Of a stretch of DNA of 32,000 bases, positions 455-19,431 are shown in pieces. A model generated the notes under the pieces. That model was not told the DNA's origin. It saw only the letters and a list, made by a program, of their open reading frames with translations, and ran no database searches. The stretch's first letter is position 1, and each line of letters begins with the position of its first letter. The DNA lies in the NCBI RefSeq assembly GCF_034097035.1, contig NZ_JAXBLV010000001.1:155848-187847 (forward strand), read 5' to 3'. The DNA comes from Gemmata algarum (lineage in GTDB: Bacteria; Planctomycetota; Planctomycetia; Gemmatales; Gemmataceae). Made by a program: the position numbers and the translations under genes.

Positions 455-3400
455 TCAACCCTCATCAACAGTATAAGGAGGAGTGAAGTAATCGCAACCG
501 GTTGTGAACTCACAGTAGAACGGGTTGAGAGTTAAAGTTCCGGTATCGCAACCAACAGCGTAGGCCGACCCTTCACTACCGTCAGAACAGCCCATGTTGT
601 CACCACCACCCGCACCGAACGTGTAGAACCCAGCCAGCCGGAAGCCAAGAGCCCCGACACAGCGACCGCCACAAGGGGTCATTCGCACGAACCAAGAGCA
701 AGCACCCAGCGTGAGGGAACCCGCCCAGTATTGATTAACCTCATCCCAAGTCAGGTAAATGGATTGTCCACTGAACTGACTGAGGCACCCGTCACCAGGG
801 GAAGTGGCAGTACCGGCAGTGAACCGCACCACTCGGGGGAGGGGCTCGGAGTAAGTGCAGTTGGCAGGAACCACATCCCGAACCGGAGCCGCACACACCG
901 CGTTAGCTGCTTCAAGAGTGTCGTAAGGCCCGCTGACAATGGTGATGGACGTGCTGTACTGATCCCCTTCCTGAAGCTCGGCAGGAGTGCCCCGACCGGT
1001 AGTTCCACACGCCCTGACGCAGTAGATCCCCTCACCGTCCCAGAGACAGGAGTTGAGCCAGCGAACCTGAACGCGAACGGTGTTGTTGGCCGGTCCCCCG
1101 CACCCACTTTCACCTGTACAGAAAGGCTCTCCGAAGCTGAAAATGGCCGAATTCTCATTACAGAACTCGCGAATCCCGACGTAGGTAGCAGCAGAGTTGC
1201 CACTTCCCACCAGACTGAGACAGGGGCTATAGCAGTTGCCGAGCGTGAAGACGGGGCTAAAGGTGCCGCCACAGATACTCAAGCCACTTGATGGGGGAAC
1301 GGAAAACAATTCGATCGACTGTTCCCCGGCCTCCCCTTCCTCACAGGGTCCGCCCGCACTGGTGATTGTCCCTTGAGCACCGCCGACCGACGTGCCGAAG
1401 TTGGTGAACGAGGTGAACGAAACGCAGCAATCAGAAACGGACGCAGACGATCGCCAAATCGCAACGTATCCCGTATCCGGGCGAGTTAAAATAATCTCGA
1501 CGTAGGCGGGGCTGACGGCGACCTGCAACTGCCATAGCCCTTGGGTCTGCGTCCATACACAAGGAGAATCTTCGGGATTTGATCGCGTTGCCGCCCAACT
1601 CGTCGGTGCAGATGCGAACCCGCCGCTGCCTGCGGTCATTGAAACTGAGAACGTGGCCGGCTGACCGCCTGAGCAAGTTCCGCACGAAGAATCGCCACCT
1701 GGATCGGTTCCCCCGCCCGAAGTCCCCCACGTAACGCCATCTGTGCTGGTGAGTTTTACCCACTGGTCGAGGCTGTCGTCACAGTCACACCGACCGTTCT
1801 CTGAGAGGATGGAGACTTCCAAACAGTCTTCCGCCGTCAGACCAACCACCCAACCACAACCGCCAGCGGGAGAGCCGGGAGTCGTGCTATTGTCAGTCGA
1901 ATTGCGGCGTTCTCGGATGATGTAGATGGTGTTCCCGTCCACACCGTCTTCACCCGGAATGGGATACCCTCTTGGCCCCCGCTCTCCACGTCTGCCCCGC
2001 ACACCCGGCGGACCATACGCACCATCTACACCGTCCTCACCCGGAATCGGAAAGCCTCTTCGGCCCTGAGCCCCGTGTCTCCCTCTCGGGCCTGGAAAAC
2101 CCTGCTCTCCATCAGCACCATCTTCTCCCGGAATGGGCGGACCAGTTGGCCCCCGATCCCCTTTCAACCCATCTCGGCCCCTTCTCCCCGGAACTCCTTG
2201 CTCTCCTTGCTCACCGTCCTCACCAGGAATTGGGGTTCCGGTTCTGCCTCTGACTCCTGCTGCACCATCTCGCCCTCTCCGTCCGGGAATACCCTGTTCC
2301 CCCTGCTCACCATCCTCTCCCGGAATGGACGGTCCGGTTCGACCCCGATCCCCTTTGGCACCAGGACGGCCTCTCGGTCCGGGTGGTCCTTGCTCTCCGT
2401 CCTCACCATCCCGGCCCGGAATCGTCAGCCCGTCTTCACCACGAGCCCCTGAAGCGGCGAATTGATCCACTCCACCGGTTGGGAAGCCTGTCCACGGTCC
2501 CCTCTGAATGCGAGTAGTGAACCGAGGCCCCGGGCCGGTCAGGCTGGAGGTCCACTCTACATGATCCTCAGCCCCTGTGGGTGCCCACGGCACGATTCCG
2601 CCGAAGGTGACATCGACGTTGCAGAGTTGCCAGCCGTAATAGTCCGCAGCAGCCTGAGCCGCGTAAGCCTCACATGCCGAGCCGTTGGTGTCGTCGAAGA
2701 TCAGGTCGGCGTAGACCGTGTGTTGGTTGCCTGAGATGCCTGTATAGCCTGAGTACTCAGGTAAAGCCAAATCGGTCAGCGTCTTCACCACAACGTAACG
2801 GTCCGACTGAAGAACCCCGTCCGTCTTGTGGGAGAAGACTACAGCCACGCTCTCAGGTACTTGCCACTTGATGTCGTCGGCAGAGAGCAGCCCACCCCCA
2901 GTCTTTCTATATTTTCCGTACTGACCCGCTGAAGCCGTCTGAGCCGCACTCCAACCGACCGTCTTGTAACTGCCGTCAAGCGAAGCCACAAACCTCTGAC
3001 CGACTGTAGTAGCAGCCGCGTCGATCAGCACCCCCACGGATTTGCGGCACTGAACCCACCGGTCCGAGGGAGAACCATAACCCCCACCAACCGACCCGAC
3101 CGAAATGGGCTCACCCGCAATCCCCGCCAGCGTGGAAAACAGACCGGTCCAACTGGGCGGCCGTTCTTCGACGTTGCCCGATCGGAGGTGGATCAGGTCG
3201 TAACGCAGGTCCACAAGGGAGAGCAGATAGAGTTGCTCAGATCCTGCAATCTGAAAAAGCGGGCGGGGAGGCAGCATTCGGAGCGAACACTGAACGGCCC
3301 CGTGGGCACTGTCACTAATGTTGAGGGTTTGGTACGGACCGTCAGCACTCACTTTAGTTCGGATCGAGTCCAAGCGGGTCGAGTTCACTACACAGTGGAA

Positions 3401-3619
3401 GGTCGCACACCGGGATCCGCCATTAGGCCAGTACAGAACTCCCACCCGAACGGGGTCAGCGATCCGATACTCAGGTGCAGATAGAGCAGCCAGCCCGGAG
3501 CCCGGAATTCCACCCAGACTTTGCTCAACCAACCGGTCAAGGGAGTGATAAAGCGAAAGGTATGCTTCCACCTCAGCAGTTTGCAGAAGGAGGGGCACTC
3601 CGGCGTAATAGAGAGGCAC
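455..3619 (-). CDS. Collagen-triple-helix-repeat protein, phage tail-fibre-like (1054 aa)
   Basis: Long ORF. Residues about 391-562 are G-X-Y repeats (GEDGEQGEQGIPGRRGRDG...) punctuated by PIPGEDG units. A non-repetitive N-terminal domain and a Cys/Gly/Ser-rich C-terminal region flank them. The tail-fibre assignment is by analogy to collagen-like phage fibres. Confidence 0.8.
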   Translation of the reverse strand: MPLYYAGVPLLLQTAEVEAYLSLYHSLDRLVEQSLGGIPGSGLAALSAPEYRIADPVRVGVLYWPNGGSRCATFHCVVNSTRLDSIRTKVSADGPYQTLNISDSAHGAVQCSLRMLPPRPLFQIAGSEQLYLLSLVDLRYDLIHLRSGNVEERPPSWTGLFSTLAGIAGEPISVGSVGGGYGSPSDRWVQCRKSVGVLIDAAATTVGQRFVASLDGSYKTVGWSAAQTASAGQYGKYRKTGGGLLSADDIKWQVPESVAVVFSHKTDGVLQSDRYVVVKTLTDLALPEYSGYTGISGNQHTVYADLIFDDTNGSACEAYAAQAAADYYGWQLCNVDVTFGGIVPWAPTGAEDHVEWTSSLTGPGPRFTTRIQRGPWTGFPTGGVDQFAASGARGEDGLTIPGRDGEDGEQGPPGPRGRPGAKGDRGRTGPSIPGEDGEQGEQGIPGRRGRDGAAGVRGRTGTPIPGEDGEQGEQGVPGRRGRDGLKGDRGPTGPPIPGEDGADGEQGFPGPRGRHGAQGRRGFPIPGEDGVDGAYGPPGVRGRRGERGPRGYPIPGEDGVDGNTIYIIRERRNSTDNSTTPGSPAGGCGWVVGLTAEDCLEVSILSENGRCDCDDSLDQWVKLTSTDGVTWGTSGGGTDPGGDSSCGTCSGGQPATFSVSMTAGSGGFASAPTSWAATRSNPEDSPCVWTQTQGLWQLQVAVSPAYVEIILTRPDTGYVAIWRSSASVSDCCVSFTSFTNFGTSVGGAQGTITSAGGPCEEGEAGEQSIELFSVPPSSGLSICGGTFSPVFTLGNCYSPCLSLVGSGNSAATYVGIREFCNENSAIFSFGEPFCTGESGCGGPANNTVRVQVRWLNSCLWDGEGIYCVRACGTTGRGTPAELQEGDQYSTSITIVSGPYDTLEAANAVCAAPVRDVVPANCTYSEPLPRVVRFTAGTATSPGDGCLSQFSGQSIYLTWDEVNQYWAGSLTLGACSWFVRMTPCGGRCVGALGFRLAGFYTFGAGGGDNMGCSDGSEGSAYAVGCDTGTLTLNPFYCEFTTGCDYFTPPYTVDEG
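1934..2449 (-). repeat. In-gene tandem repeat encoding collagen G-X-Y blocks, about 32-aa units each starting PIPGEDG
   Basis: Five PIPGEDG-initiated units, each 9-10 G-X-Y triplets, plus an initial degenerate block containing TIPGRDG, are visible in the translation. Coordinates come from residues 391-562 of the 455..3619 ORF. Confidence 0.8.
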
Positions 3620-3692
3620 AGGGCTGGCACCTTAGTGAACAGAAGTGAAAAGTTAAGAATTGACGCGATTAGGTATGAGAGCCGAGAGTCTA

Positions 3693-3721
3693 GATGCAAG
3701 TAGGTCTTGGGAGAAAGGTAG
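3693..3721 (-). promoter_or_regulatory. Element motif copy A (CTACCTTTCTCCCAAGACCTACTTGCATC on minus strand)
   Basis: The plus strand reads GATGCAAGTAGGTCTTGGGAGAAAGGTAG. The copy lies between two minus-strand genes, 73 nt upstream of the start at 3619. Confidence 0.5.
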
Positions 3722-3743
3722 AGAAGAGGTCCGCCTTGAAGAC

Positions 3744-4364
3744 CTACAGCCACTGATCCAAGCCGGTCTCTGGTGGACTGTTTCGGCGGCGGGTAGCTAT
3801 CTTGTGAGCCATTCCCAAACTGGAGATCATTCCTTGGGCAGAGGGCCAGTGCAGAGTGCCACCGTCGAACTGTGGGATGAAGTGGTGTTGAGCCGGGGTC
3901 TCGTGTTCCCAGTTGGCTAAGTAACCTGGAAGATCGGTCACGTCCACACCCCAGGGCAGCACCGGAGGCTCTTGCTCACCGTGATATTCGGCCAGGGGAT
4001 CGTGTTTGATAGACCAAGGGCGGTTGGGGTCGTCGGATCGCTGGGACGGGTACTCGTGCTGGAGCCAGTGGGCGAGCGACTGGTGGAAGTCAGCCATATC
4101 GTGGTGATCCTGTTCCCGCAGGTAGTCGGCGTAGGCATTCCGGGTGTTGTGGTCGAAAGGCGACTTGTCCAGGGCTTTGAGGAAGGCTTTGTTTTCTGGC
4201 CCCAACTTCCGCGGTTGCTGGTCCGGAGTCTTTTTGGCTCGCTTTGGTTTGGTGAATTGGCCTGTGGCGGGGTCTACCATCGGCCCGATCCCAGTGAACG
4301 GCTTTTTGGCGAAGTGGAGTGCCTTGTTATACGATTTGGCGTACTTGCGATCCGAACGATCCAT
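3744..4364 (-). CDS. TIGR02996-like (degenerate) repeat-companion-domain protein, 206 aa
   Basis: Segment FLKALDKSPFDHNTRNAYADYLREQDH resembles the TIGR02996 core (..P.DD..RLVYADWLEE.GD). I prefer the ATG at 4364 (MDRSDRKY), which has GAGG 8 nt upstream. The ORF-track start at 4481 would translate through the pentanucleotide repeat. Confidence 0.6.
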   Translation of the reverse strand: MDRSDRKYAKSYNKALHFAKKPFTGIGPMVDPATGQFTKPKRAKKTPDQQPRKLGPENKAFLKALDKSPFDHNTRNAYADYLREQDHHDMADFHQSLAHWLQHEYPSQRSDDPNRPWSIKHDPLAEYHGEQEPPVLPWGVDVTDLPGYLANWEHETPAQHHFIPQFDGGTLHWPSAQGMISSLGMAHKIATRRRNSPPETGLDQWL

Positions 4365-4375
4365 GTAAAACCTCA

Positions 4376-4428
4376 GAAGTGAAGTGAAGTGAAGTGAAGT
4401 GAAGTGAAGTGAAGTGAAGTGAAGTGAA
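4376..4428. repeat. Pentanucleotide microsatellite (GAAGT)x10 plus a partial unit
   Basis: Ten perfect GAAGT units span 4376-4425, followed by GAA. The array ends 11 nt upstream of the ATG at 4364 on the minus strand. It is in frame with an upstream ATG at 4481, where it would encode HFTSL repeats. Confidence 0.95.
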
Positions 4429-4552
4429 CCAGACGTGCAGAACCGCCCTCCCCTACTCAACCCTAGGCAAGGAGAAGGCATAACGCGAAGTGTTAGGACA
4501 GATGTGAACCAGACGAAATGAGAACAGTACTGGGGTCAGGAAAGAGTGTCGT

Positions 4553-4582
4553 GCTGCAAGTAGGGGATTGGGAGAAAGGTAA
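4553..4582 (-). promoter_or_regulatory. Element motif copy B (TTACCTTTCTCCCAATCCCCTACTTGCAG on minus strand)
   Basis: It forms a perfect 27-bp inverted repeat (4555-4581) with copy C (4619-4645). It points left toward the gene starting at 4364. Confidence 0.5.
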
Positions 4583-4617
4583 AGGTCGAAGTCTAGGGCC
4601 GGTGTAGTTTGAGTCCC

Positions 4618-4647
4618 CTACCTTTCTCCCAATCCCCTACTTGCATC
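4618..4647 (+). promoter_or_regulatory. Element motif copy C (CTACCTTTCTCCCAATCCCCTACTTGCATC)
   Basis: It lies back-to-back with copy B in a divergent intergenic region. It points right toward the LRR operon. Confidence 0.5.
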
Positions 4648-5025
4648 TCTATCCTCGACTCTCTGTGTGGTGTTTACTGGCCTGTGCTCTATTATACACT
4701 CCCTACTCTCTGTCCTATTCCACCAGCCCTTGCCCTTGTCCACCTTTCCTCTTTCTTTCTTAAACACCCTAATATATAAATACGACTCTGCCGCAAAATT
4801 TTCGCAGAAAGAAAACCTTCCAGAAGGATTTTACACCCCTGAAATGCTGGAAATTGCAGGAAATCGATCGAGTTGACAAAAATTCAAAATCCCCCGAAGT
4901 GCGAAGAAAACGGTCCGCAGTCGTATTTATCTATTGTGCCCCGCAAGCGACGACAGATATCAGAGTGAAGGTGGCAAGGCAGACGGGTTGGGTGTTGGTG
5001 CTCGGAGAGCCGGTCGCCGTCGCCA

Positions 5026-7064: not shown

Positions 7065-7469
7065 ATGCCGGGACTATTCGTCGTTCGTGACGCTTGGGAG
7101 TACGCATCCACGTCGTCCTCCAAACCTCTTGACCGAAAGTGGTTTCCGCTCGTTGAGGATGTTACGGTAATCGGTCGCGATCCTGCCCGGGACGTGGTCA
7201 TACCTGCCATCTACATTCGTCGGGCGGAAGCGAAGATCGTGCGTGAAAACGGGGCGTACTACCTGGAGAGCCTGCCCCACAGCAACGCAACCGTGTTCGA
7301 GGATCAAGTGCCCTGGTGCCACCGAACGAGGCGTGTGCTGAACTACGGTGACCTTATCAAAATCGGGCAGTATGAGTTCGCCTTCTTGAACGATCCAACC
7401 GACCTCATTGTTACCGCGGAAGCGTCGCACCAACAGAGAGCAGCAGCAGATGGCAGGGGCAGAGGATGA
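7065..7469 (+). CDS. FHA (forkhead-associated) domain protein, 134 aa
   Basis: VTVIGRDPARDVVIPAIYIRRAEAKIVRENGAYYLESLPHSNATVFEDQV...LNYGDLIKIGQYEFAFL fits the FHA pattern (iGR....di.l....vSR.Ha.i......y.l.Dl.S.NGt.vn......L..GD.i.iG...f.f). Confidence 0.7.
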   Translation: MPGLFVVRDAWEYASTSSSKPLDRKWFPLVEDVTVIGRDPARDVVIPAIYIRRAEAKIVRENGAYYLESLPHSNATVFEDQVPWCHRTRRVLNYGDLIKIGQYEFAFLNDPTDLIVTAEASHQQRAAADGRGRG

Positions 7470-7492
7470 AGGGAGAAGGAACATCCGGAAAC

Positions 7493-7858
7493 TCAGTTGT
7501 CCGAAGGGCCGAACCTGCTGAAGCGGCGGGGCGGCTCTATGGGGTGGCACTGGATCTCGTCTGTTGTCGTGGAGGGGCGAAACACCCACTCTTCCGCCAC
7601 AGATACGACCTTGGCGCGAAGCATTCGATACCGCTCGAAGTCGCCGTGCTGTTCAGAGTCCCAAGACTCCTCCAGAGACTGGAGGCCCAACCGAGCAACT
7701 TCAGCCCTCTCGACCACAGGACCACGGATCTGAACCGGGACAACATCTACAACGTGAGCGTTCACCAACTCGCCATCCTGGCCGACAAGCTGCATATCGA
7801 ACAGAACCGCGTAGGCCCGCAACATCTGAGCCGGGTTCGTGGGAGTAACATTACTCAT
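7493..7858 (-). CDS. Hypothetical protein, 121 aa
   Basis: ATG start with GGAG 9 nt upstream. It lies 20 nt downstream of the stop of 7879..8337(-). Its composition is more protein-like than the overlapping plus-strand ORFs. Confidence 0.5.
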   Translation of the reverse strand: MSNVTPTNPAQMLRAYAVLFDMQLVGQDGELVNAHVVDVVPVQIRGPVVERAEVARLGLQSLEESWDSEQHGDFERYRMLRAKVVSVAEEWVFRPSTTTDEIQCHPIEPPRRFSRFGPSDN

Positions 7859-7878
7859 TCAGGTTCTCCAGGAAGGCT

Positions 7879-8337
7879 TTAATTCTCAGACGGGGTGTAT
7901 TTGCGGCGTGATGTGTCGGGCACGTAGCAAGTGTGGCTAACTTTCGCGGGCTCGGAGGCCACCACCCACTCTTTTGCAGACTCCACCAGCATCCAATCCA
8001 CAGTTTGCCACTGGCGGAGCGGCCCCATAGATTCTGTACGCCAGCCGGAACGCAAAGACTCCATCGCCAACTCCACCACCTCCTCTTCTCCGATCTCTCT
8101 AGCGTCTGGCTCCAAGAACGACACGGGAACAGGCTGGACGACAGGAGCTTTGAGGCCCGCACGCCGCAGAGTAAGCAGGACAACGAAGGACTGGAGATAC
8201 TCCACCGGATTCGGGGCCGAGAATCGGGATTGACGAACCAGAACAGCGGCACACATACGAGACACCTTGACGAGTGCAGAGGAGGGAACCTTAACCTGCC
8301 ATACATATAGAGGCAGAAGCAGACCGAATTGTTGCAC
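7879..8337 (-). CDS. Hypothetical protein, 152 aa; first gene leftward of the 8338-8870 control region
   Basis: GTG start at 8337 with no clear SD, so the start is uncertain. It is operonic with 7493..7858. No family recognised. Confidence 0.4.
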   Translation of the reverse strand: MQQFGLLLPLYVWQVKVPSSALVKVSRMCAAVLVRQSRFSAPNPVEYLQSFVVLLTLRRAGLKAPVVQPVPVSFLEPDAREIGEEEVVELAMESLRSGWRTESMGPLRQWQTVDWMLVESAKEWVVASEPAKVSHTCYVPDTSRRKYTPSEN

Positions 8338-8349
8338 TAAACCACACCA

Positions 8350-8367
8350 TTTTGAGAATTCTCAAAA
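8350..8367. promoter_or_regulatory. Perfect 18-bp palindrome TTTTGAGAATTCTCAAAA, operator-like
   Basis: Read directly from the sequence. It lies immediately 5' of motif copy D, and a TTTTGAGA half-site recurs at 8487-8494 just beyond copy E. Confidence 0.6.
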
Positions 8368-8369
8368 TC

Positions 8370-8398
8370 CTACCTTTCTCCCAAGACCTACTTGCATC
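8370..8398 (+). promoter_or_regulatory. Element motif copy D (CTACCTTTCTCCCAAGACCTACTTGCATC)
   Basis: Perfect 29-bp inverted repeat with copy E. It points right toward the replication module starting at 8871. Confidence 0.5.
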
Positions 8399-8455
8399 AA
8401 TACGAACACACTCGACCCCAGAATGACGATTCAGAGAGGCAACTTCGAGGATCGA

Positions 8456-8484
8456 GATGCAAGTAGGTCTTGGGAGAAAGGTAG
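8456..8484 (-). promoter_or_regulatory. Element motif copy E (identical to D, minus strand)
   Basis: The plus strand reads GATGCAAGTAGGTCTTGGGAGAAAGGTAG. It points left toward the gene starting at 8337. D and E face each other across a 57-nt spacer. Confidence 0.5.
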
Positions 8485-8490
8485 TGTTTT

Positions 8491-8613
8491 GAGACGGCAG
8501 AGACGGCAGAGACGGTGATTTTGGGGAACAGCTCCTCTTCTCTCTTCTTTCTTCAAAACATGGTCAAGGAAAGAGTTTTGGGAAAACGCCGTCTCTGCCG
8601 TCTCTGCCGTCTC
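8491..8613. repeat. 25-bp perfect inverted repeat built from tandem 9-mers (GAGACGGCA), arms at 8491-8515 and 8589-8613
   Basis: The left arm is GAGACGGCAGAGACGGCAGAGACGG and the right arm is its exact reverse complement. The spacer is 73 nt and pyrimidine-rich. Confidence 0.9.
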
Positions 8614-8870
8614 GAATTCCCCATCAGACCACGCTCGCTTTCGACCAGTGGACGCCACAAATCAGCCTTTTCTGGGCACCGTCGCCGGCAATGTTGCAGC
8701 AAAATTGAAAATGCCCAAAAATCTTAAACCCTTCGACACCATAGGTTTTTGAACACCTTCAATCCTACCCTGTGCCAAATCTGTCGTCTTACCTGGAATC
8801 GCTGCCTATATATTATTGGGGAGCCCATACTGACTTCCCACGAGTATCCAAACCGATGAGGAAATAAACC

Positions 8871-9092
8871 ATGACCAAGGCCAAGACCGCGACCGACCTC
8901 GTGAACGTGCAACTGCCCCACCTGACTCACCGGGTGATTCGGGAGCGAGCAAAACAATTAATGGCCAACGTGAAGATCGTTACCACCGCAATGGCCCGAG
9001 GATTCGAGCAGCTCAGTCTGGAGGAGCAGACGAAACTAATCGACGAGGCCCGAGCCAAGCTCATTCAGGCCGAGTCTGCAAAGGGTAACTAA
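8871..9092 (+). CDS. Small DNA-binding-like protein, possible ribbon-helix-helix (Arc/CopG-type), 73 aa
   Basis: GAGGA lies upstream of the ATG. The N-terminal segment DLVNVQLPHLTHRVIRERAKQL looks like a beta-strand plus helix as in RHH proteins. It is the first gene after the repeat-rich control region. The fold call is tentative. Confidence 0.45.
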   Translation: MTKAKTATDLVNVQLPHLTHRVIRERAKQLMANVKIVTTAMARGFEQLSLEEQTKLIDEARAKLIQAESAKGN

Positions 9093-9198
9093 TCGCGTGT
9101 GTTCCACCTGCCCCCTTCACTCTAACGGCGTGTTCAATTCTCCGGTCTCGCACCGGTCGCACCTTCACTTCTTCTCTCTCACTTCCCGAGGCATTTCC

Positions 9199-9621
9199 AT
9201 GAGTTACCTTGATTCGATTCCCGCGTCCCACCTCGTCCCGAAGGGCACACTAGTTCAGTGCCGTCTCCTCTCCTGCGTCCGCTCTCGGCATTTCGCTAAC
9301 GGGCAGAAAATCCAATACGAGTGTTCCTGGCAGGTTACAGAGGGGCCATATGCCGGTCACGTGCTAACGCGGAGCTGGTGGACAACCCCGGGCGGACTCC
9401 CGGTGCTGTACGCCGATTGCGAAAAGCTCGACATTGGGCACCCAGAGGAACTTTGCTTCGGCCCGCCTGACCCGATCGTTGTTGAGGGTGTCGCCTCGAT
9501 CAGCGAGTACAACGGCGTGTCGCGAAACGAGCTGTGCAGAATCGATCGCCGAGTGCTCCCGCAGACCTCACGCACCCGCCCCAGAGAAGTCTTCGACGAT
9601 GAGATCAGCACCGCATTTTAG
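9199..9621 (+). CDS. DUF669-like / SSB-like phage protein, 140 aa
   Basis: The pattern VPKGT...W.VTEGPYAGHV......EYNGVSRNEL resembles DUF669 phage proteins. The acidic C-terminal tip FDDEISTAF is reminiscent of SSB tails (DDDIPF). I chose the ATG at 9199, which lies within ORF 9097..9621. Confidence 0.4.
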   Translation: MSYLDSIPASHLVPKGTLVQCRLLSCVRSRHFANGQKIQYECSWQVTEGPYAGHVLTRSWWTTPGGLPVLYADCEKLDIGHPEELCFGPPDPIVVEGVASISEYNGVSRNELCRIDRRVLPQTSRTRPREVFDDEISTAF

Positions 9622-9650
9622 CCCCACCCCACTCACAGAAGGACAGACAT

Positions 9651-11399
9651 ATGGCAAAGAAAAAGGTCACGAAAGCAGACATTCAGGGCCAGTACGAGGT
9701 CTTCCGGTTGCTAGGCATCCGGCTGGTTAGGTCGAAGTCCGGGGAGCTGTTCCTGGCCACCAGCCCGACCGGTAAGCCCGGGGGGAGCGTGGAGCTACAG
9801 CCCTACGACCTAGCTGAGTCGTGTGAAGAGATTAAGTGGGTACTACGAGAGGCGAACAAGTCCGCGGACATGCGATTAGTAGCCGAGGCTGTCAAGGGAC
9901 TCGTCCGAAGCACCAAAAAAAGCCCACCGGAAATGGTGTCGCGTCGCGTCGCCGAGCGGGACGGAAAAATCTTTGTAGACCTGTGCGACGCAAAACGGCA
10001 GGTGGTGGAGATTTCGGCTGACGGGTGGCGAGTCACCACCGACTGCCCGGCTCTCTTTCACCGGCCGCTCCAGGCTCTACCCCTGCCGGTCCCGGTTCAG
10101 GACGGCTCCATTCAGCGATTGCGGGAACTGTTCAGCATTCTGGACGAGCCGAGTTGGATTTTGGTGTTGGGCTGGCTGAGCACCACCCTGAAGGAGCACT
10201 GCGACCACCCGTTCTTGTCGATCCTGGGTCCGCCGGGTTCGGGCAAGAGTGCCCTCACCAAGTTTGCGTACTGCACGATCGATCCTCGCGAGGCGAAGGG
10301 GCTGCAGATGCAGCAGAACGCAGAGGATTTGCAACTCAGTGCTTTCAACCGCTGGGTACTCCCGCTCGATGAGGTCGATAGTCTCCCGCCGGAAAAATCC
10401 CGGATCGTAGCGACCATCTGCACGGGCGGGGCTCTCGAAAAGCGAAAGAAGTACGAGGATACGGAAGTTGTATGTGCTGTAATCAATCGCCCGGCCATCA
10501 TCAACGGGCTAGAGGCAGGGGAGTGGCTGCACGAGGAGCGAATCCGGGACCGTGCGATTCCCGTGACTCTCAGTCGGGTGCGACCCGAAGCCAGTGTTGA
10601 GGACGGAGATCTTATCCGAGCGTTCGAGCGACATCACCCGGAGATACTCGGTGGCCTTTTCACAATCGTTTCCCGGGCACTCAGAGGCGTTCGGGATGGA
10701 GAGGCGTCAGCCCACCACGCTCTGCGAATCAAGGAGGCCATGACGTGGGCGGATCGCTGCGTACACGCTGCGGGATACCCGAAAGGGGAGTTCACCCGGC
10801 TGGTGACGGAAGCACACGCCAGGGTCGTTGAGAGGGTGGCCGAAGAGTGGCCCCTACTCGACCCACTACTGAAAGTGGCTGGATCGGGGTTCCAGGGCAG
10901 TCCTACGGAGCTTCTAGACAAGCTCAACAGCATGGTCGAGCGGAAGGGGCGAGATTGGCCGAAGAGTTCGAGCCAACTGACCCGAGCGATCAATCTACAC
11001 ATCGATTACCTGGAAAAGCGGGGCGTCCGGGCTGAGCACACCAAGGGCCAGCAGCGATTCTGGGTAATTCGGTCGGTCCCGAGTTCCCCTCAAAAGAGTG
11101 CCGACTCAGTGAATGCGGCCAAACCGCTGGCATCATTATCCGAAGGCGAGCAGTCAGACTTGAAGTCGAAGCTCCTTCGGTGGGCCGATTTTGCAGACAA
11201 AATCGATATCTGCTTCACTCACCGGGACTCCAGCAACACGCTGTATGGTCGATTTGCAGAGGCGGCCTCGATCGCCTTGAAGAGAACTTTGGAGCCAGAC
11301 CGCACGCTGCGAATACCTGATGACGAGTTTCTCTCACTCGACACAGCAAGCGAGTTACTACTTGTCGAAATTAATCCAAGAACTGAGGGCAAAAATTGA
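9651..11399 (+). CDS. P-loop NTPase, replicative primase/helicase-like protein of mobile elements, 582 aa
   Basis: Walker A is LGPPGSGKSALTK and a Walker B-like segment is WVLPLDEVDSL. The N-terminal region (RVAERDGKIFVDLCDAKRQVVEISADGWRVTTDCPALFHRP) is typical of P4/D5-type element replication proteins. GAAGGA lies upstream of the ATG. Confidence 0.65.
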   Translation: MAKKKVTKADIQGQYEVFRLLGIRLVRSKSGELFLATSPTGKPGGSVELQPYDLAESCEEIKWVLREANKSADMRLVAEAVKGLVRSTKKSPPEMVSRRVAERDGKIFVDLCDAKRQVVEISADGWRVTTDCPALFHRPLQALPLPVPVQDGSIQRLRELFSILDEPSWILVLGWLSTTLKEHCDHPFLSILGPPGSGKSALTKFAYCTIDPREAKGLQMQQNAEDLQLSAFNRWVLPLDEVDSLPPEKSRIVATICTGGALEKRKKYEDTEVVCAVINRPAIINGLEAGEWLHEERIRDRAIPVTLSRVRPEASVEDGDLIRAFERHHPEILGGLFTIVSRALRGVRDGEASAHHALRIKEAMTWADRCVHAAGYPKGEFTRLVTEAHARVVERVAEEWPLLDPLLKVAGSGFQGSPTELLDKLNSMVERKGRDWPKSSSQLTRAINLHIDYLEKRGVRAEHTKGQQRFWVIRSVPSSPQKSADSVNAAKPLASLSEGEQSDLKSKLLRWADFADKIDICFTHRDSSNTLYGRFAEAASIALKRTLEPDRTLRIPDDEFLSLDTASELLLVEINPRTEGKN

Positions 11400-12343
11400 A
11401 GTGCGGGAACAAAGAAACCACGTGCGGCTGGTGCGAGAAGCTGGAGCAGCTCGATCTCATTTCGGGTTCAAACTACAACTGCCTACCGTGTGACCGAACC
11501 TCTGATGTAATAGAGTGCGAATGCAACAAGTGCAAAAAAACCTATCACGAGAATGTGATCAGAACCAAGAAGTGTGGCTTTAAGGTGGTGGAAGGACGAT
11601 CTTGCTGCCCACACTGCTTCTACAAAGCCAACGACGGCTTCAAGAGTCGCGACCCAAATGGCATCCAAGAGGGTCAACGTAAACTCCGCGACACCCAAGG
11701 AAAACCCGCACTTGGCACTCCACCGACTCCGCGAGAAGCGAGGGCAATTTGTGCTTATGCTTTGGCCGAAACATTTATGAAAGCAAATAAAGAGGACCCT
11801 CTAAGTCAGGATGACCTTCTGAACCGCCTGACTGCCAAGGGCACCGAATGCGTTTTTCGTTTTATCCCTTCGACACCAGACATGGTAATTCCCAAATTTC
11901 GCACAAGTTACAATTGCTGCCTTGAGGTGCCAAGGGGGTTCGTAGGATACTGTTGGAAATGTTACAAGCAGATTCTAACAGATATCTACTCAGAGCGTGA
12001 ACAATCACCTCAGCTCCTTGAGTACAGTGAAGGACCAACCGAAGCTGCAGCTAAGCCCGGTCTTAACCCAGGCCAGATCCTCCTAGACCCTCTCCCTTTA
12101 CTGCTGCCGCCGCTCAACAACCTGACACAGCAGCAACAGGACGTTCTTTTGATGAGTCTAGGACTGCACCAGGAGTATGACGGGGAGCTGTCCGATAACG
12201 AGATCGCCAGCCTCCTCAATATCTCTCCCGGGAACGTCCGCTCTACCAAGAGCAGGGCAAAGACACAATTGAGTGCCGATCCGGAGCTAGCAACCCTTTT
12301 TGCCAAGATATCCAGGCGTCAGACCACTGACGGGTGGCACTAG
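11396..12343 (+). CDS. Zinc-ribbon (multiple CxxC) protein with C-terminal sigma-70 region-4-type HTH, 315 aa
   Basis: The N-terminus has CGWC, CLPC, CECNKC and CCPHC. The C-terminus LTQQQQDVLLMSLGLHQEYDGELSDNEIASLLNISPGNVRSTKSRAKTQL matches the region-4 pattern (L.p.qr.vl.l.y..g.s..EIA..lgis.gtVks...rA...L). No region 2 is evident. The TTG start overlaps the upstream TGA (TTGA at 11396-11399). Confidence 0.6.
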   Translation: MKCGNKETTCGWCEKLEQLDLISGSNYNCLPCDRTSDVIECECNKCKKTYHENVIRTKKCGFKVVEGRSCCPHCFYKANDGFKSRDPNGIQEGQRKLRDTQGKPALGTPPTPREARAICAYALAETFMKANKEDPLSQDDLLNRLTAKGTECVFRFIPSTPDMVIPKFRTSYNCCLEVPRGFVGYCWKCYKQILTDIYSEREQSPQLLEYSEGPTEAAAKPGLNPGQILLDPLPLLLPPLNNLTQQQQDVLLMSLGLHQEYDGELSDNEIASLLNISPGNVRSTKSRAKTQLSADPELATLFAKISRRQTTDGWH

Positions 12344-12379: not shown

Positions 12380-12408
12380 CTACCTTTCTCCCAACCCCTA
12401 CTTGCATC
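12380..12408 (+). promoter_or_regulatory. Element motif copy F (CTACCTTTCTCCCAACCCCTACTTGCATC)
   Basis: It lies 25 nt upstream of the TTG start at 12434. Confidence 0.5.
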
Positions 12409-12433
12409 TCGACCCTCTACCCCAAGGACTACA

Positions 12434-12760
12434 TTGACTACAGACGATCACACTTTGCACGCCCTCTCCCACCCTTCCCTTCAGGCCCTTCTTCCTGCCC
12501 GCGACCACGGAAAGCCATACAACCCTAACCGACTAGCCGACTGGTGCAGGCGGGGACGCCGGGGGTTAGATGGGGAGCAGGTCTACTTGAAATCAGAGAA
12601 GCAGGGCGGGCAATACATGACGAGTATCGTAGCTTTGCGGGAATTCCTGGAGAAGACCGGCCTGAGCGTGGAGGATGAGGACGAGGAGTTTCACGAATTC
12701 TACTACCACCCACTACCACCGGTGTCCTTCCCTGCCACTAAGAACCACAGGCGAAATTGA
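12434..12760 (+). CDS. Small HTH-like protein (excisionase/DUF1580-like), 108 aa
   Basis: PYNPNRLADWCRRGRRGLDGEQVYLKSEKQGGQYMTSIVALREFLEKTG resembles the pattern tl.RW...G.rG.kL....vGG....ts.eAl.rFl of excisionase-type or DUF1580 proteins. TTG start. The assignment is tentative. Confidence 0.4.
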   Translation: MTTDDHTLHALSHPSLQALLPARDHGKPYNPNRLADWCRRGRRGLDGEQVYLKSEKQGGQYMTSIVALREFLEKTGLSVEDEDEEFHEFYYHPLPPVSFPATKNHRRN

Positions 12761-12814
12761 CCACAAGGGCGGTCGCGGGGTGGTAGACTTGGTACCTGGC
12801 GAGGAGTAACCGTC

Positions 12815-13462
12815 GTGGACGACAGCCTCGACAGCAAAGTTCGCCTGCCCTTTCAGTGGTCCCACCGCAAGGCACACTTGCTACTCTGTGCATCGTGCGG
12901 CCCGGCACTTCGTTTAGTCGGCAGTCGGGAACTGCAAGTAGCCATCGAAGTGGGCGAGTTGCACAGTGACGGCCAATCGACAGCCGACCAAATTCAGATC
13001 GAAGTGGAGCGAGCACGTGCGGCGGTCACACGGCTGACGAGCGACGAGGTGCTGCGTACCCTTGCCGACATCGTTTGTCGAGCAGCCACTTTTCTCGTCC
13101 CCTCTTGGCTCGATGGCCGCTTGGTTCAGGGAGAGCCGCGAGACGTGCCTAACCTGCTAACCTCCATCTTAGGTTTGGCCGAGTTGGTAGGCGGCGTGGC
13201 GGATGGCCGGACCTTGTTTGACACCCTGTTCGATGACATCGAGGCCCGTGGCGTCCTTTGCTGTCCCGAGTGGCGTACCGAGACTGTTTTGGCCCTCGCA
13301 CGCGAGATGTACGAGTCCCGCGACTTCAGCGCGATGCCGATTCTCGCAGATGCCCTTCAGGACGCCGGGTGTAACAACGAAGACGTGTTGAACCACTGCC
13401 GCGGGCCGGGGCCACACGTTCGAGGCTGTTGGGTGGTGGACCTCCTGCTCGGAAAAGAGTGA
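12815..13462 (+). CDS. Planctomycete paralog-family protein with C-terminal ILADALxDAGC...HCRGPGPHVRGCWVVDLLLG motif, 215 aa
   Basis: GTG start with GAGGAG 9 nt upstream. The C-terminal motif is MPILADALQDAGCNNEDVLNHCRGPGPHVRGCWVVDLLLGKE and is shared with 13954..14625. Confidence 0.65.
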   Translation: MDDSLDSKVRLPFQWSHRKAHLLLCASCGPALRLVGSRELQVAIEVGELHSDGQSTADQIQIEVERARAAVTRLTSDEVLRTLADIVCRAATFLVPSWLDGRLVQGEPRDVPNLLTSILGLAELVGGVADGRTLFDTLFDDIEARGVLCCPEWRTETVLALAREMYESRDFSAMPILADALQDAGCNNEDVLNHCRGPGPHVRGCWVVDLLLGKE

Positions 13463-13575
13463 TAGCGAGCCGTGTCGGGCAAACCCCTATTTCTGGTGCG
13501 GGCGGAACTTTCGCCAGTCTTCGGTCTCGCAGCGGTTCTAGTTTTGAGCCCTGCCCCTTATCCGGAGACGTAATC

Positions 13576-13917
13576 GTGTTAGCTGCACACACGACCGAAC
13601 GCCGCCGATCCGCCCGTTTCCTGCCCGCTTTCGTTACTTACTGCCGTGCCGGAAGTGGTGGCGAAGGACTCGTCTGGAACATTTCGGTTACCGGTCTGGG
13701 GATGCTCATCGGGTTCCCGCCCGAAGAGAGCCAGACGCTGCCGATCGAGCTATCGAACCACACCACGTGCCTCTGCTTGATGGCGAAAGTGGCCCACGTC
13801 CGGCAGTTAGAGGCTGGGGACTTCTTCGTCGGGTTGCGATTCGATAAGCCCCTCGGAAAACACGAGATGGAGCATTTCGTGAAGCTGAAGGAGCCGAAGT
13901 TGGGAACTTGCCGATAG
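13576..13917 (+). CDS. PilZ-domain protein (putative c-di-GMP receptor), 113 aa
   Basis: RRRSAR fits RxxxR, and about 24 aa later NISVTG fits (D/N)xSxxG. GTG start at 13576 with GGAG 8 nt upstream. The longer ORF-track start at 13429 would overlap the previous gene. Confidence 0.6.
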   Translation: MLAAHTTERRRSARFLPAFVTYCRAGSGGEGLVWNISVTGLGMLIGFPPEESQTLPIELSNHTTCLCLMAKVAHVRQLEAGDFFVGLRFDKPLGKHEMEHFVKLKEPKLGTCR

Positions 13918-13953
13918 CGAGAGCCCACGTGCTACCGGTCCGCAGAGGGCACC

Positions 13954-14625
13954 ATGACCGAATCCGAGTGGCTGACCTGCACCGACCCGAGCCCGATGAT
14001 CGACTTTCTGTCCCGAGAGGGGAACGACAGGCCCCTGCTCCTTGCCGAGTCTGCGTTCTGCTCCCGGATCGCCCACCACCTCACCGACCCTCGGAGCCGA
14101 GATGCGGTAGCCGCCCTTCAGCGACTGGCCGAGAGAGGACGTGATTCCGACCCGTTCCCCGAGCTGATGCCCGCCGTCTACGCCGCACAGGATGCATCCA
14201 ACGCTTTCGACGCACTCGGTGAGGCTGCAACCATCGAAGACGCCGCCCGCGTGTCAGCCGCTACGGCCGCAGGATACGTTGGGGTCGGAGGAACGGTCTC
14301 GGTTGCGGTGAGCTGTCAGGCGGCTGCTGACCCCACCGGTGACGGATCTCGCGAACGGGCCGCTCAGGCAGACCTCCTGCGGGAGTTCGCACACCCCTTC
14401 CGTACCTCACCAGACGCCGCGTGGATGACGCCAACCGTGGTCGCCCTGGTCCGGGGTATCATTGCCGACGCGGCCTTCGACCGACTACCGATTCTCGCGG
14501 ACGCCCTGGAGGATGCTGGGTGTGCTGATTCGGTCTTGCTGGCCCACTGTCGAGGTGACTGCCCCCACCTTCCGGGATGCTGGGCTGTTGAGTTACTGAA
14601 CCACTCTCCGGCCACTGGTCGCTAA
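13954..14625 (+). CDS. Second member of the same paralog family, 223 aa
   Basis: The N-terminus is MTESEWLTCTDPSPMIDFL. The C-terminus is LPILADALEDAGCADSVLLAHCRGDCPHLPGCWAVELL. Confidence 0.7.
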   Translation: MTESEWLTCTDPSPMIDFLSREGNDRPLLLAESAFCSRIAHHLTDPRSRDAVAALQRLAERGRDSDPFPELMPAVYAAQDASNAFDALGEAATIEDAARVSAATAAGYVGVGGTVSVAVSCQAAADPTGDGSRERAAQADLLREFAHPFRTSPDAAWMTPTVVALVRGIIADAAFDRLPILADALEDAGCADSVLLAHCRGDCPHLPGCWAVELLNHSPATGR

Positions 14626-14651
14626 GAAACTTCGGCCTGAAGGGAATCGGG

Positions 14652-15011
14652 ATGCGTGAAGCCCTCGCTCCTGTCGTTGCAGCCGTTGTGATCCTGGCCC
14701 TGTGGGTGGTCGCCCGGGGGTTGAGGACGATTCGCGAGCAGCCCAAGAAGGTCGTTCGCACTCCCCCTGCGTGGGTACCCAAAGGTCCAGCCGATTACGA
14801 CACACTTCTGCGGGCCGTTCGAGCAGAACTGGCAAGGAACTTGGTGGGACGAGTGGACTGGACACGCCCGGTCGAGGAGATCAGGCAGAGCATCCGTCCG
14901 GCCGTCGAACACCTGATCGATACCGCGAACCCGCTGCTCAACCGGATCGAACGGGGGAGGCTCATTCAGGAGGTGGTAGACGGAATCAAGTCGCCTTCAC
15001 AATCAGAGTGA
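14652..15011 (+). CDS. Small membrane-anchored hypothetical protein, 119 aa
   Basis: GAAGGGA lies upstream of the ATG. An N-terminal TM helix (APVVAAVVILALWVVA) is present. The soluble part (YDTLLRAVRAELARNL...IRPAVEHLIDTANPLLNRIERGRLIQEVVDGI) is reminiscent of the N-terminal segment of CpaF/TadA-type ATPases, but no ATPase domain follows. Confidence 0.5.
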   Translation: MREALAPVVAAVVILALWVVARGLRTIREQPKKVVRTPPAWVPKGPADYDTLLRAVRAELARNLVGRVDWTRPVEEIRQSIRPAVEHLIDTANPLLNRIERGRLIQEVVDGIKSPSQSE

Positions 15012-15435
15012 CTACCGTTGACAGACCAACGACCTCGACCCCGATCAAACTGCACCAGCTTTAGTTCTCCCCTCTACCACTCTGAATATAGATTCTGATC
15101 GCAGGGTAGAAATGCCTTGATCCGCCCGAGCAGCAGATGCATTGGCCACGGAACCAAATACCATACGGCCCACTTCGACCACACAGCAATCAGTAGAATT
15201 TCAACAAGATCCGCGGTTCTTCAGATTTCCCGGCACGATATTTTCACCATATTCGACCGAGAGCCCATCCAAGGGTTTCTGGAGGTGTATCACTCTTGAT
15301 CGCACCAGACGAGGCCATTGGTGACAAACTGCACGGGTCTCGGACCGGTAGCCGAATGGGATGCGACGCGATCCTATTCCGAACCGCACGCAGGGCACTA
15401 ATCGCAGACAGTTCCCACCCTCACTCGATCGCCCT

Positions 15436-15630
15436 ATGGAGGCCACTTTGCCTAACCCCAAGCGTTACGACTGGTATGCCTTCCCTCCTAAAGGCAGGCT
15501 CACTATAGCGAACCGCGTTCAGCAAAATATAGATCAGCCACTCACGAAGGACGAAATATATGCAATGGCGGAGTATCTATTAGCTTGCGAGACGCCTCCA
15601 GAGGCTCCACAAGAACCCGAATCACGGTAG
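15436..15630 (+). CDS. Small hypothetical protein upstream of the recombinase, 64 aa
   Basis: ATG at 15436 within ORF 15361..15630. No recognisable family. It could be a recombination directionality factor by position only. Confidence 0.3.
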   Translation: MEATLPNPKRYDWYAFPPKGRLTIANRVQQNIDQPLTKDEIYAMAEYLLACETPPEAPQEPESR

Positions 15631-15704
15631 ACCCGCAATTCTTCGGAGTTGGGCACCGTGATCGCTCCACAGTGCTCGTCTCTTTTTCTTTTTTGGTACT
15701 TGTT

Positions 15705-17411: not shown

Positions 17412-17455
17412 GACCAGAATTCGCGTTTGTGGGCCATTGGCTCTTTGGTGAAAAT

Positions 17456-17485
17456 CTACCTTTCTCCCAAATTCCTACTTGTATC
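17456..17485 (+). promoter_or_regulatory. Element motif copy G (CTACCTTTCTCCCAAATTCCTACTTGTATC), the most diverged copy
   Basis: It lies 57 nt upstream of the HNH endonuclease start at 17543. Confidence 0.45.
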
Positions 17486-17503
17486 TAGATCCCCTCCCCT
17501 TCA

Positions 17504-17542: not shown

Positions 17543-18034
17543 ATGGAAGAGATTTGGAAACCGATTCCCAATGCCGAGGGTTACGAGGTGAGTGACCTTG
17601 GTAGAGTGCGGACTTACTTTTGGCGAAAGAAGTGGTGGCCCGAGCCCCGAATCCTCTCCCTGACTCTTCACTCCGACGGGTATCTCAAGACCACCATCAA
17701 CGGCCAGACTCGCTACGTCCACCAACTCGTTCTATCAGTTTTTGGTTCAGATCCCCGACCAGGGCAGGTGGTGCGTCACAGAGGGGGAGATCCCCACGAC
17801 AACCGAGCCTGCAACCTGGAGTGGGGGAGTCGAACGGAGAACAATCAGGACACGGCTCGGCACGGAAAAGTAGCGGGGCAGAAGCTGAGCGAGGACGAGG
17901 CTTGGGGAATCAAACTGCTCCTGCACCACCAAGTTCCTGGCCCCGACGTGAAACGGATCTACCCCCACGCCAGCACCGGAATGATCTCCTGCATCAGACT
18001 CGAAAAGACTTGGCCCTATTTGACGATCAACTAA
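17543..18034 (+). CDS. HNH homing-endonuclease-like protein with NUMOD4 motif, 163 aa
   Basis: WKPIPNAEGYEVSDLGRVRT is a NUMOD4 motif. YVHQLVLSVFG...VVRHRGGDPHDNRACNLEWGSRTEN is an HNH_3-type motif. Confidence 0.75.
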   Translation: MEEIWKPIPNAEGYEVSDLGRVRTYFWRKKWWPEPRILSLTLHSDGYLKTTINGQTRYVHQLVLSVFGSDPRPGQVVRHRGGDPHDNRACNLEWGSRTENNQDTARHGKVAGQKLSEDEAWGIKLLLHHQVPGPDVKRIYPHASTGMISCIRLEKTWPYLTIN

Positions 18035-18072
18035 CTCTTCCTCCTCAGCCTTCGGGTTGGGAGTTTCCCCTT

Positions 18073-18885: not shown

Positions 18886-18966
18886 TGGCCAAGGTGGGAC
18901 TCGAACCCACACAGGTTGCCCCGCTCGATTTTGAGTCGAGTGCGTCTGCCATTCCGCCACTTGGCC
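18886..18966 (-). tRNA. tRNA-Leu, anticodon CAA, 81 nt, CCA not encoded
   Basis: The reverse complement is GGCCAAGTGGCGGAATGGCAGACGCACTCGACTCAAAATCGAGCGGGGCAACCTGTGTGGGTTCGAGTCCCACCTTGGCCA. It folds with a 7-bp acceptor stem (GGCCAAG/CTTGGCC), anticodon stem CTCGA/TCGAG with loop CTCAAAA, a long variable arm and a GTTCGAGTC T-loop. Confidence 0.9.
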
Positions 18967-19324
18967 TGAGCCCTTAATGTATGGGCTTTTTGCGACGTGA
19001 GCCAGAGCAAAGCAGCGGGAAGGTTTCGGAAGTTGACCGAACGGACTTCACCAACTCCGGCCGCCACTTCCGATCGCCGCCACCGCTTTCGCGGTGCAGG
19101 CACACGTTCGTAACTGACGGGGTTAACGGTTCTTACAGTAACGGGGCCGCGGTCGGGGTGATGACCATCCGGGGCCGAGTGACACGCGACACGGCCGTTC
19201 TTCCGACCGGCTGCGGTTCAAAGCTTCAGGAAGTCGCGGTCGGCGTCGTCGGTGTCATCAGCCGGGAAGGCGACGGGGCCGTCGAGCCGAGTGATACCGA
19301 ATCCGATTGAAGAGTCACTGCTTC

Positions 19325-19395: not shown

Positions 19396-19431
19396 AATAC
19401 GGCGTGGATACGGATCAATCGGATTCTAGTA

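Follow-up and report, generated by a model that had tools for sequence, protein, structure and literature searches.

We propose, with moderate confidence, that a 614-bp intergenic region of Gemmata algarum serves a chromosomally integrated island as its central region for both control and replication, and that it is built of three nested, roughly symmetric layers. The region most likely occupies positions 8257-8870 of the 32,000-nt stretch analyzed here (the window; contig NZ_JAXBLV010000001.1, positions 155,848 to 187,847), between a leftward and a rightward operon. At its core, two copies (D and E) of a motif best read as an island-specific promoter point at each other. Short palindromic half-sites and two complementary arrays of a 9-mer, which probably form an iteron-type replication origin, adjoin these copies, and an outer pair of inverted boxes lies upstream of the two divergent start codons. 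The initial annotation had suggested a lysogeny or immunity switch, an iteron origin, or both. The repeats, the adjacent replication module, sequence constraint and iterons beside homologs of the replication protein favor "both", whereas phage-type lysogeny or immunity is not borne out, as no such genes were detected. Our analysis adds the promoter-type motif family with its face-to-face copies, homolog-based support for the origin, the third symmetric layer and purifying constraint. All inference is computational and draws on two closely related genomes, that of the window and that of G. obscuriglobus, which represent lineages ~6% apart.

Facing motif copies in a constrained intergenic region

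The core of the region is a perfect 29-nt inverted repeat (8370-8398 and 8456-8484) with 57 nt between its arms; extended to 39 nt, the arms are complementary at 95% of positions. This repeat was described at the outset and is confirmed here, and its arms prove to belong to a family of seven motif copies in the window, at 3721 (-), 4582 (-), 4618 (+), 8370 (+; copy D), 8484 (-; copy E), 12380 (+) and 17456 (+). The motif spans ~40 nt in three blocks, which are CTACC-TTTCTCCCAA, then CCTACTTGCA after a variable spacer of 3-4 nt, and finally TCTnnAYCCTC. Across 10 aligned non-redundant copies, taken from the window and from L001, a mosaic relative of the island that occupies the same chromosomal site in G. 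obscuriglobus, the string CCTACTTG is invariant. The expected number of motif matches in shuffled sequence is 0.00.

All seven copies are intergenic and each points at the next gene on its own strand, with the end of block 2 lying 26-74 nt upstream of the start codon at four of them. No copy was found in 12 kb of host DNA or at the convergent junction 7469/7493, and the other divergent junction (4482-5025) carries a back-to-back pair (4582-4544 on the minus strand and 4618-4656 on the plus strand). The motif, third block included, is kept at a site that has different downstream genes in the two genomes (window copy 3721 and L001 copy 4960). Taken together, the positions and orientation of the copies, their restriction to the island and their retention make an island-specific promoter the best reading of the motif.

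Copy D (8370-8398, plus strand) consists of blocks 1 and 2 (CTACCTTTCTCCCAA-GAC-CTACTTGCATC) and lacks the third block. Copy E (8443-8484, minus strand) is a complete three-block copy, CTACCTTTCTCCCAAGACCTACTTGCATCTCGATCCTCGA, and points left. The DNA between the facing copies (8399-8442) is identical in G. obscuriglobus and has no internal repeats; it would be a zone of antisense overlap if both copies fire. In G. obscuriglobus the 5' end of copy E reads CGCCAGC instead of CACTACC, and copy D shows no change that would compensate. The remaining solitary copies lie upstream of a 1054-aa collagen-repeat gene (copy at 3684-3721, minus strand; gene at 455-3619), 26 nt upstream of a DUF1580-like gene (copy at 12380-12417, plus strand; gene at 12434-12760) and upstream of a TIGR02996-domain gene (copy at 17456-17492, plus strand; gene from 17543 or 17620 to 18738).

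About 13 contig pieces match the motif in the 9-Mb G. obscuriglobus genome, including a second convergent pair, 92 nt apart, that lies outside L001 (run X1, record 2, 3112-3282). At least three further G. obscuriglobus copies have flanks present in neither the window nor L001. A scan for a 19-base core gave three matches in GTDB genomes, none in IMG/VR and nine in JGI metagenomes; none of these extends past the core, as expected of chance core matches. The motif itself was not found in 596 Gb of other genomes, in IMG/VR or in JGI metagenomes.

The limits of the intergenic region depend on the start of the leftward gene, which had been placed at 8337. The annotation of G. obscuriglobus and the codon positions of the differences make ATG 8256 more likely, which leaves 8257-8870 between the operons. 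Against a background of 6.6% differences from G. obscuriglobus (divergence is ~6% with flanking host genes included), the stretch 8257-8620 shows only 7 differences in 364 positions (P = 2.7e-5), with none in the 224 positions of 8257-8480 (P = 2e-7), whereas 8621-8870 diverges by 7.6%. Evolution of 8257-8620 is thus ~3.5 times slower than that of its surroundings, which supports purifying constraint on this noncoding stretch. An open reading frame (ORF) at 8431-8658 was considered as a coding explanation and rejected, being frameshifted in G. obscuriglobus by an indel at 8518. The 250 bp before the rightward gene had been called AT-richer, a description that fits 8691-8830 (42% GC) and not 8617-8690 (61% GC).

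An 18-bp perfect palindrome, TTTTGAGAATTCTCAAAA, is confirmed at 8350-8367, where it abuts the upstream edge of copy D and is a candidate dimer operator. It is composed of two TTTTGAGA half-sites. This half-site occurs three times in the 32 kb, compared with 0.71 expected, and all three occurrences fall in the present region. A half-site abuts the upstream edge of both facing copies, as the full palindrome on the left and as a single half-site fused to a 9-mer array on the right. These half-sites are candidate operators specific to this junction.

An outer inverted pair that had escaped earlier notice completes the layout. The sequence CTGCCTnTATAT has exactly two matches in the 32 kb (0.00 expected), at 8316-8298 on the minus strand and 8802-8820 on the plus strand, 40-50 nt upstream of each divergent start codon. 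The left box (8298-8316, minus strand; CTGCCTCTATATGTATGGC) lies ~40 nt upstream of ATG 8256, contains a -10-like TATATG core and sits within an 81-nt stretch identical to G. obscuriglobus. The right box (8802-8820, plus strand; CTGCCTATATATTATTGGG) has a -10-like TATATT ~50 nt upstream of ATG 8871 and sits within a 45-nt block (8802-8846) with 0/45 differences, as against 13/67 in the neighboring 8735-8801. The boxes may plausibly be proximal sigma-70-type -10 elements or operators, and the right box could be the proximal promoter of the replication operon or an operator for it. The stretch 8735-8801, which immediately precedes the invariant block, shows an excess of differences (19%, P = 4e-4) and is either hypervariable or relaxed.

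The 9-mer arrays as a probable replication origin

To the right of the facing copies, two arms (8491-8515 and 8589-8613) are perfectly complementary, 73 nt apart and composed of tandem GAGACGGCA, as previously described, with 2.8-2.9 copies each. The left array (8487-8515, plus strand) is the third TTTTGAGA half-site fused to 2.8 copies; it abuts the upstream edge of copy E and is identical in G. obscuriglobus. The right array (8587-8613, minus strand) holds 2.9 copies and is complementary to the left array over 25 nt. The array centers are 98 bp apart and the period is 9 bp. The sixfold GAGACGG cluster is the sole such cluster in the 32-kb window, and one cluster in total arose in 30 shuffles. 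The iteron arms have no differences from G. obscuriglobus (0/67, P = 0.01).

The spacer between the arrays (8516-8588) is 73 nt long with 41% GC, compared with 57% in the island and 65% in the host, and is a candidate DNA-unwinding element. It had been termed pyrimidine-rich, which is true of a 23-nt all-pyrimidine tract (8532-8554) but not of the spacer overall (52% pyrimidine). One indel and two substitutions distinguish it from the G. obscuriglobus spacer; the indel indicates that the exact spacer length is not fixed.

The rightward genes had been interpreted as a replication module, and this interpretation is upheld by relatives of their 582-aa P-loop protein (9651-11399, plus strand; ~1 kb from the arrays), which are fused to replication domains and lie adjacent to primase-polymerase (prim-pol) genes on small plasmids. 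The protein belongs to a mobile-element primase-helicase and plasmid replication family. The 582-aa protein itself has no Pfam match, and sequence and profile searches of the PDB returned Walker-A motifs only. Its relatives are fused to Toprim, DnaG zinc-ribbon, DUF3854, NrS-1 HBD, VapE-like and DUF5906 domains. Plasmids of 12-50 kb from Streptomyces, Methylobacterium, Stanieria and Methanothrix carry homologs, and another is gp37 of Microbacterium phage Zeta1847, annotated as a helicase or primase. The homolog on pFP11 (28% identity, E = 2e-27) follows a prim-pol gene.

Repeat clusters lie within ~1 kb of the homolog at 6 of 10 loci, in both orientations, with 12 copies on pSTS2, 13 on the 11-1-2 plasmid, 6 at L017, 7 on pH6Ac and 5 on pM44602; shuffles of three of these loci gave no clusters. 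On pFP11, ~570 bp past the stop codon of the homolog, tandem 11-mers (CAGGGACGCAC) form a perfect 25-nt inverted repeat around a 60-nt spacer, set within nine copies of GGGACGC. As a side observation, the iteron units of the window (8491-8613) and of pFP11 (L018, 5764-6016) agree at 7 of 9 positions (CAGAGACGG and CAGGGACGC) and their cores, GAGACGG and GGGACGC, at 5 of 7, a likeness that is not significant on its own with the register freely chosen.

The features of an iteron-type origin are thus found together here, namely an adjacent replication-family gene, arrays in two orientations, a spacer of lower GC content and recurrence of such clusters beside homologs. By analogy, the arrays and their spacer probably constitute such an origin, and we propose the 582-aa protein as the initiator that binds the 9-mers. 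The closest published parallels are the iteron theta origins of the Streptomyces plasmids pFP11, pFP1 and pWTY27, whose loci combine rep, prim-pol and iterons and which likewise use short units arrayed directly on both strands to form long inverted repeats. The replication loci of pFP11 and pFP1 have been reported as rep plus iterons (direct and/or inverted repeats) bound by Rep, and the 522-aa RepA of pWTY27 footprints a discontinuous inverted repeat of ~105 bp, with 7-8-bp units on opposite strands and the loop left free (PMC3583192). The perfect 25-nt inverted repeat of pFP11 is made of 11-mers around a 60-nt spacer, that of the window of 9-mers around 73 nt. Unlike the pFP11 type, the window has its arrays upstream of the operon, six units instead of 9-13, a chromosomally integrated planctomycete element as carrier and a probable origin embedded in a putative face-to-face promoter region.

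Origins of Staphylococcus aureus pathogenicity islands (SaPIs) offer a second parallel, with oppositely pointing iterons on either side of an AT-rich center that are bound by a self-loading helicase (PMC9371898). SaPIs and other phage-inducible chromosomal islands share with the present element the opposed short iterons around an AT-rich center, the integrated island and, as proposed here, a self-loading initiator-helicase. They differ in that SaPI iterons are 5-6 bp long and immediately downstream of rep, that no sequence homology of the 582-aa protein to SaPI Rep was detected and that the island shows no sign of helper-phage dependence or packaging genes.

The mechanism that we infer, including promoter activity, transcription starts, pairing of proteins with sites and origin activity, would run as follows. 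Copies D (rightward) and E (leftward) would act as face-to-face promoters separated by 57 nt, D driving an operon for the 73-aa, 174-aa, 582-aa initiator-helicase and sigma-4-like proteins and E a unit of two paralogous orphan genes. Since the promoters would face each other, the transcription starts of the two units would overlap in antisense, and the units would compete by promoter occlusion or polymerase collision, as in the switch of phages P2 and 186. Promoters of P2-like phages face each other 40-60 bp apart (PMC7498355), a range that includes the 57 nt of the window, and the resemblance extends to divergent operons, to repeat sites beside the opposed promoter-type elements and to a small protein encoded by the first gene of one operon. 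Unlike the P2/186 switch, the island has as facing elements identical copies of one motif and not two different sigma-70 promoters, no repeats between them, no CI, Cox or Apl homologs and no phage structural genes. The TTTTGAGA half-sites may serve as operators for a switch-specific regulator, and the outer CTGCCTnTATAT boxes would act as proximal sigma-70-type -10 elements or as operators. The 582-aa protein would bind the arrays on both sides of the spacer, melt it and self-load. Initiator binding and transcription are probably coupled, since the left array is in contact with the upstream edge of promoter E and the origin would be crossed by rightward transcription.

Points against the proposal and alternative readings

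Several observations weigh against a control region that combines promoters with an origin. A generic promoter scan of 8100-9100 found no sigma-70-type site, and by inspection the motif fits none of the sigma-70, sigma-54, sigma-32, extracytoplasmic function (ECF) or Bacteroidetes consensus sequences. The third block, which all other copies have, is missing from copy D, and this copy may therefore be an incomplete promoter. Three of the seven copies (3721, 12380 and 17456) lie between co-directional genes, as would also suit a repressor site of the "stoperator" type. On the origin side, a spacer with 41% GC is, in absolute terms, no more than moderately AT-rich; no cluster occurs near the homolog at 4 of the 10 loci (L016, L020, L021 and L025); and the iterons of the plasmid relatives are mostly downstream of the homolog, whereas the arrays of the window are ~1 kb upstream. 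The published RepA of pFP11 may be a protein other than the homolog of the 582-aa protein, and pWTY27 is not among the tblastn matches of the 582-aa protein. Finally, the low divergence from G. obscuriglobus could partly stem from recent recombination. A third lineage was sought, and runs X6 and X7 share the G. obscuriglobus substitutions.

A purely transcriptional switch with no origin is the strongest alternative, although we think it rather unlikely. The 9-mer arrays would then be operators for a small island regulator, either the 73-aa product, which is in a Cox- or Apl-like position, or one of the leftward orphans. Small oligomerizing regulators typically target tandem short repeats. Such a regulator would bind the tandem repeats cooperatively, might loop the arrays across the 98 bp between them, and would shut promoter E and set the balance between left and right. 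The left array does abut the upstream edge of copy E, and the half-site in it also makes up the palindrome upstream of copy D. The phages P2 and 186 provide a precedent, with a small protein, the product of their first early gene, binding direct repeats at the face-to-face promoters (PMC7498355). However, the 9-mer arrays lie outside the facing pair, with no repeats in 8399-8455 and a period of 9 bp instead of 10-11 bp. In addition, neither the 73-aa protein nor either leftward protein has a detectable DNA-binding fold or family, and homologs of the 582-aa protein recurrently accompany similar inverted iteron clusters on plasmids, where this type of origin has been reported.

It is also possible, but in our judgment unlikely, that the motif is not a promoter. 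It might be an orientation-dependent silencer site, like the stoperators of mycobacteriophage L5, or a composite of promoter and operator, and the facing pair would form a double roadblock insulating the two operons. Stoperator orientation is coupled to the direction of transcription, as is that of the motif copies here. The three copies between co-directional genes, the absence of a recognizable -35/-10 consensus and the missing third block of copy D all suit this reading, and the orphan protein with a sigma-4-type helix-turn-helix (HTH) in the island could be the binder. Yet the motif is about three times longer than a stoperator (~13 bp), its three blocks and variable spacer are promoter-like, and there are only seven copies. 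Each module head has exactly one copy, other internal gaps have none (for example, the 349-nt gap at 15012-15360), and both divergent junctions have exactly two.

An RNA-level element, with the D/E or 9-mer inverted repeats forming hairpins as an attenuator, processing site or small-RNA precursor, is very unlikely. Rightward RNA from 8399-8640 folds at -103 kcal/mol (z = -6.5), with the hairpin of the 9-mer inverted repeat dominant, but inverted DNA repeats all fold well as RNA and the z-score is therefore not independent evidence. Leftward RNA is no more structured than expected (z = +1.2), neither strand has a T-run after the hairpin and no Rfam family matches. It had been predicted that either transcript would begin with a long hairpin, which we do not find supported. 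Pairing of D with E is not kept, as one arm has three uncompensated substitutions in G. obscuriglobus, and a transcript starting downstream of its own promoter copy would contain the opposite arm only. The motif is unstructured as RNA, and a structured RNA motif was rejected on this ground.

Selfish or neutral repeats without a role in the island, of the kind formed by miniature inverted-repeat transposable elements (MITEs), repetitive extragenic palindromes (REPs) or bacterial interspersed mosaic elements (BIMEs), are largely refuted and have only the slightest chance of accounting for the inverted pairs: the 39-nt inverted repeat and 57-nt spacer superficially resemble a 135-bp MITE and the copies are dispersed and intergenic, but the arms converge in one pair (8370/8484) and diverge in the other (4582/4618) and three copies are solitary, on which the MITE reading was rejected; the unit is neither palindromic nor structured and numbers ~13 pieces in a 9-Mb genome with none elsewhere in the public data scanned, which led us to reject REPs and BIMEs on copy number and lack of a palindrome; and the region evolves ~3.5 times more slowly than its surroundings.

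Flanking genes, the island and significance

The first leftward gene (7879-8256, minus strand) encodes a 125-aa orphan, or 152 aa from the alternative GTG start at 8337. The codon pattern shows it to be a real gene, as 18 of the 22 sites that differ from G. obscuriglobus are third positions; the G. obscuriglobus ortholog P0029 is the only homolog of its product. That product is paralogous to the product of 7493-7858 (E = 2e-12). The latter frame, on the minus strand, is the real gene and not the plus-strand ORF 7466-7882, as the differences at plus-strand position 1 correspond to minus-strand position 3. An AlphaFold2 (AF2) model of the 125-aa protein was unusable (predicted local distance difference test, pLDDT, 40).

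The first rightward gene (8871-9092, plus strand) is preceded by a GAGG Shine-Dalgarno sequence at 8858-8861 and encodes a 73-aa orphan. Its proposed ribbon-helix-helix (RHH) character is not supported. The products of 7879-8256, 7493-7858 and 8871-9092 have no Pfam, NCBIfam or PHROG match. The single-sequence AF2 model of the 73-aa protein (pLDDT 78) has helices at residues 7-12, 20-46 and 50-71, forming a helical hairpin with no strand, and Foldseek found no match to it in the PDB. The model is uninformative on this point, as the RHH strand forms only in the dimer, and an RHH fold is still conceivable. For the 174-aa ORF of the same operon there were no matches, and no prim-pol was recognized beside the helicase. 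The small proteins of L017 are not homologous to those of the window, though the layout is the same.

The predicted product of the last gene of the operon (11396-12343, plus strand) is an orphan whose N-terminus is Cys-rich and whose C-terminus holds a sigma-70 region-4 HTH (residues 240-292; PF08281, E = 1.4e-6), and TIGR02937 matches its C-terminus only. It is 94% identical to a G. obscuriglobus protein. No sigma region-2 match was found in Pfam or NCBIfam, and comparison of the N-terminal 230 aa with 1.84 billion representative proteins gave no relative. Possession of region 4 without region 2 does not support a bona fide sigma factor. No other part of the island is as conserved as this predicted ORF (2.4% differences, P = 3e-9), yet its differences show no third-position bias (6/5/6), and it may be translated only in part. 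In phage Zeta1847 (L021, genes 37-42), an annotated RNA polymerase sigma factor comes five genes after the 582-aa homolog, echoing the island order.

Speculatively, this sigma-4-like protein is a candidate specificity factor for the dispersed motif. Phages and prophage-like elements with their own sigma or sigma-like factor (PBSX with Xpf, SPO1 with gp28/gp34) similarly combine a long conserved motif at the head of each module with a sigma region-4 HTH protein; the island protein differs in having no detectable region 2 and an orphan Cys-rich N-terminus, and its link to the motif is speculative. In the most far-reaching version, which we regard as improbable, the Cys-rich protein with region 4 only would be a new specificity factor directing host RNA polymerase to the 40-nt motif, the replication operon would be under positive feedback, and the head-on promoters by the origin would form a symmetric collision switch coupling replication to island-wide transcription.

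The region lies in the 57%-GC part of the window (1 to ~19000), beyond which the DNA has the 65% GC of the host, and a tRNA-Leu(CAA) gene (18886-18966) adjoins the low-GC part. The element is a low-GC island, at least 19 kb long, inserted in the Gemmata chromosome. It has the look of an integrative island of non-phage type; no phage structural, CI or Cro/Cox genes were detected in the element, and a blastn search against phages gave no match. "Lysogeny switch" is hence to be taken to mean a bistable control region of a generic kind within an integrative island. Two island genes have the G. obscuriglobus-specific TIGR02996 domain and one matches DUF1580, a Planctomycetes family.

Other features of the island were noted in passing. 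G. obscuriglobus lacks a 4.7-kb segment (12721-17474) that holds six ORFs and encodes a large serine recombinase (15585-17411); in its place is a 1.5-kb segment with an Abi_C gene that would be driven by a separate motif copy. On the right, the blastn match ends within the motif copy at 17456. A perfect (GAAGT) x10.6 microsatellite (4376-4428) occupies the 5' part or leader of the TIGR02996 gene at 3744-4481 (minus strand). Homology to G. obscuriglobus (3692-4428) stops at this microsatellite and the ortholog has 206 aa instead of 245 aa, so the true start may be downstream of the microsatellite. The 1054-aa collagen-triple-helix-repeat gene contains a 96-nt unit repeated 3.6 times (2081-2422). 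An AT-rich 20-nt inverted repeat, AATATATAAATACGACTCTG (4771-4790 and 4916-4935; 125-nt spacer), lies in the leader between the motif copy at 4618 (+) and the leucine-rich repeat (LRR) gene at 5026. Just past tRNA-Leu, at the GC boundary between island and host, are two strong inverted repeats, one at 19323-19397 with 30-nt arms and a 15-nt spacer and one at 19465-19605 with 39-nt arms and a 63-nt spacer; both are also present in G. obscuriglobus and could be terminators or related to attachment (att) sites.

In the Planctomycetes, elements of this kind are essentially undescribed and a native replicon would be useful (PMC11958385). If our reading is true, the region would be an unusual version of the P2 and 186 face-to-face switch, with identical promoter-type elements placed head-on next to an origin, and the 40-nt motif would be a source of native, possibly inducible, promoters. 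To our knowledge, no replicating plasmid exists for model planctomycetes. Should the 9-mer arrays together with 8871-11399 be a working replicon, this ~3-kb fragment would be a candidate for the first Gemmata shuttle vector.

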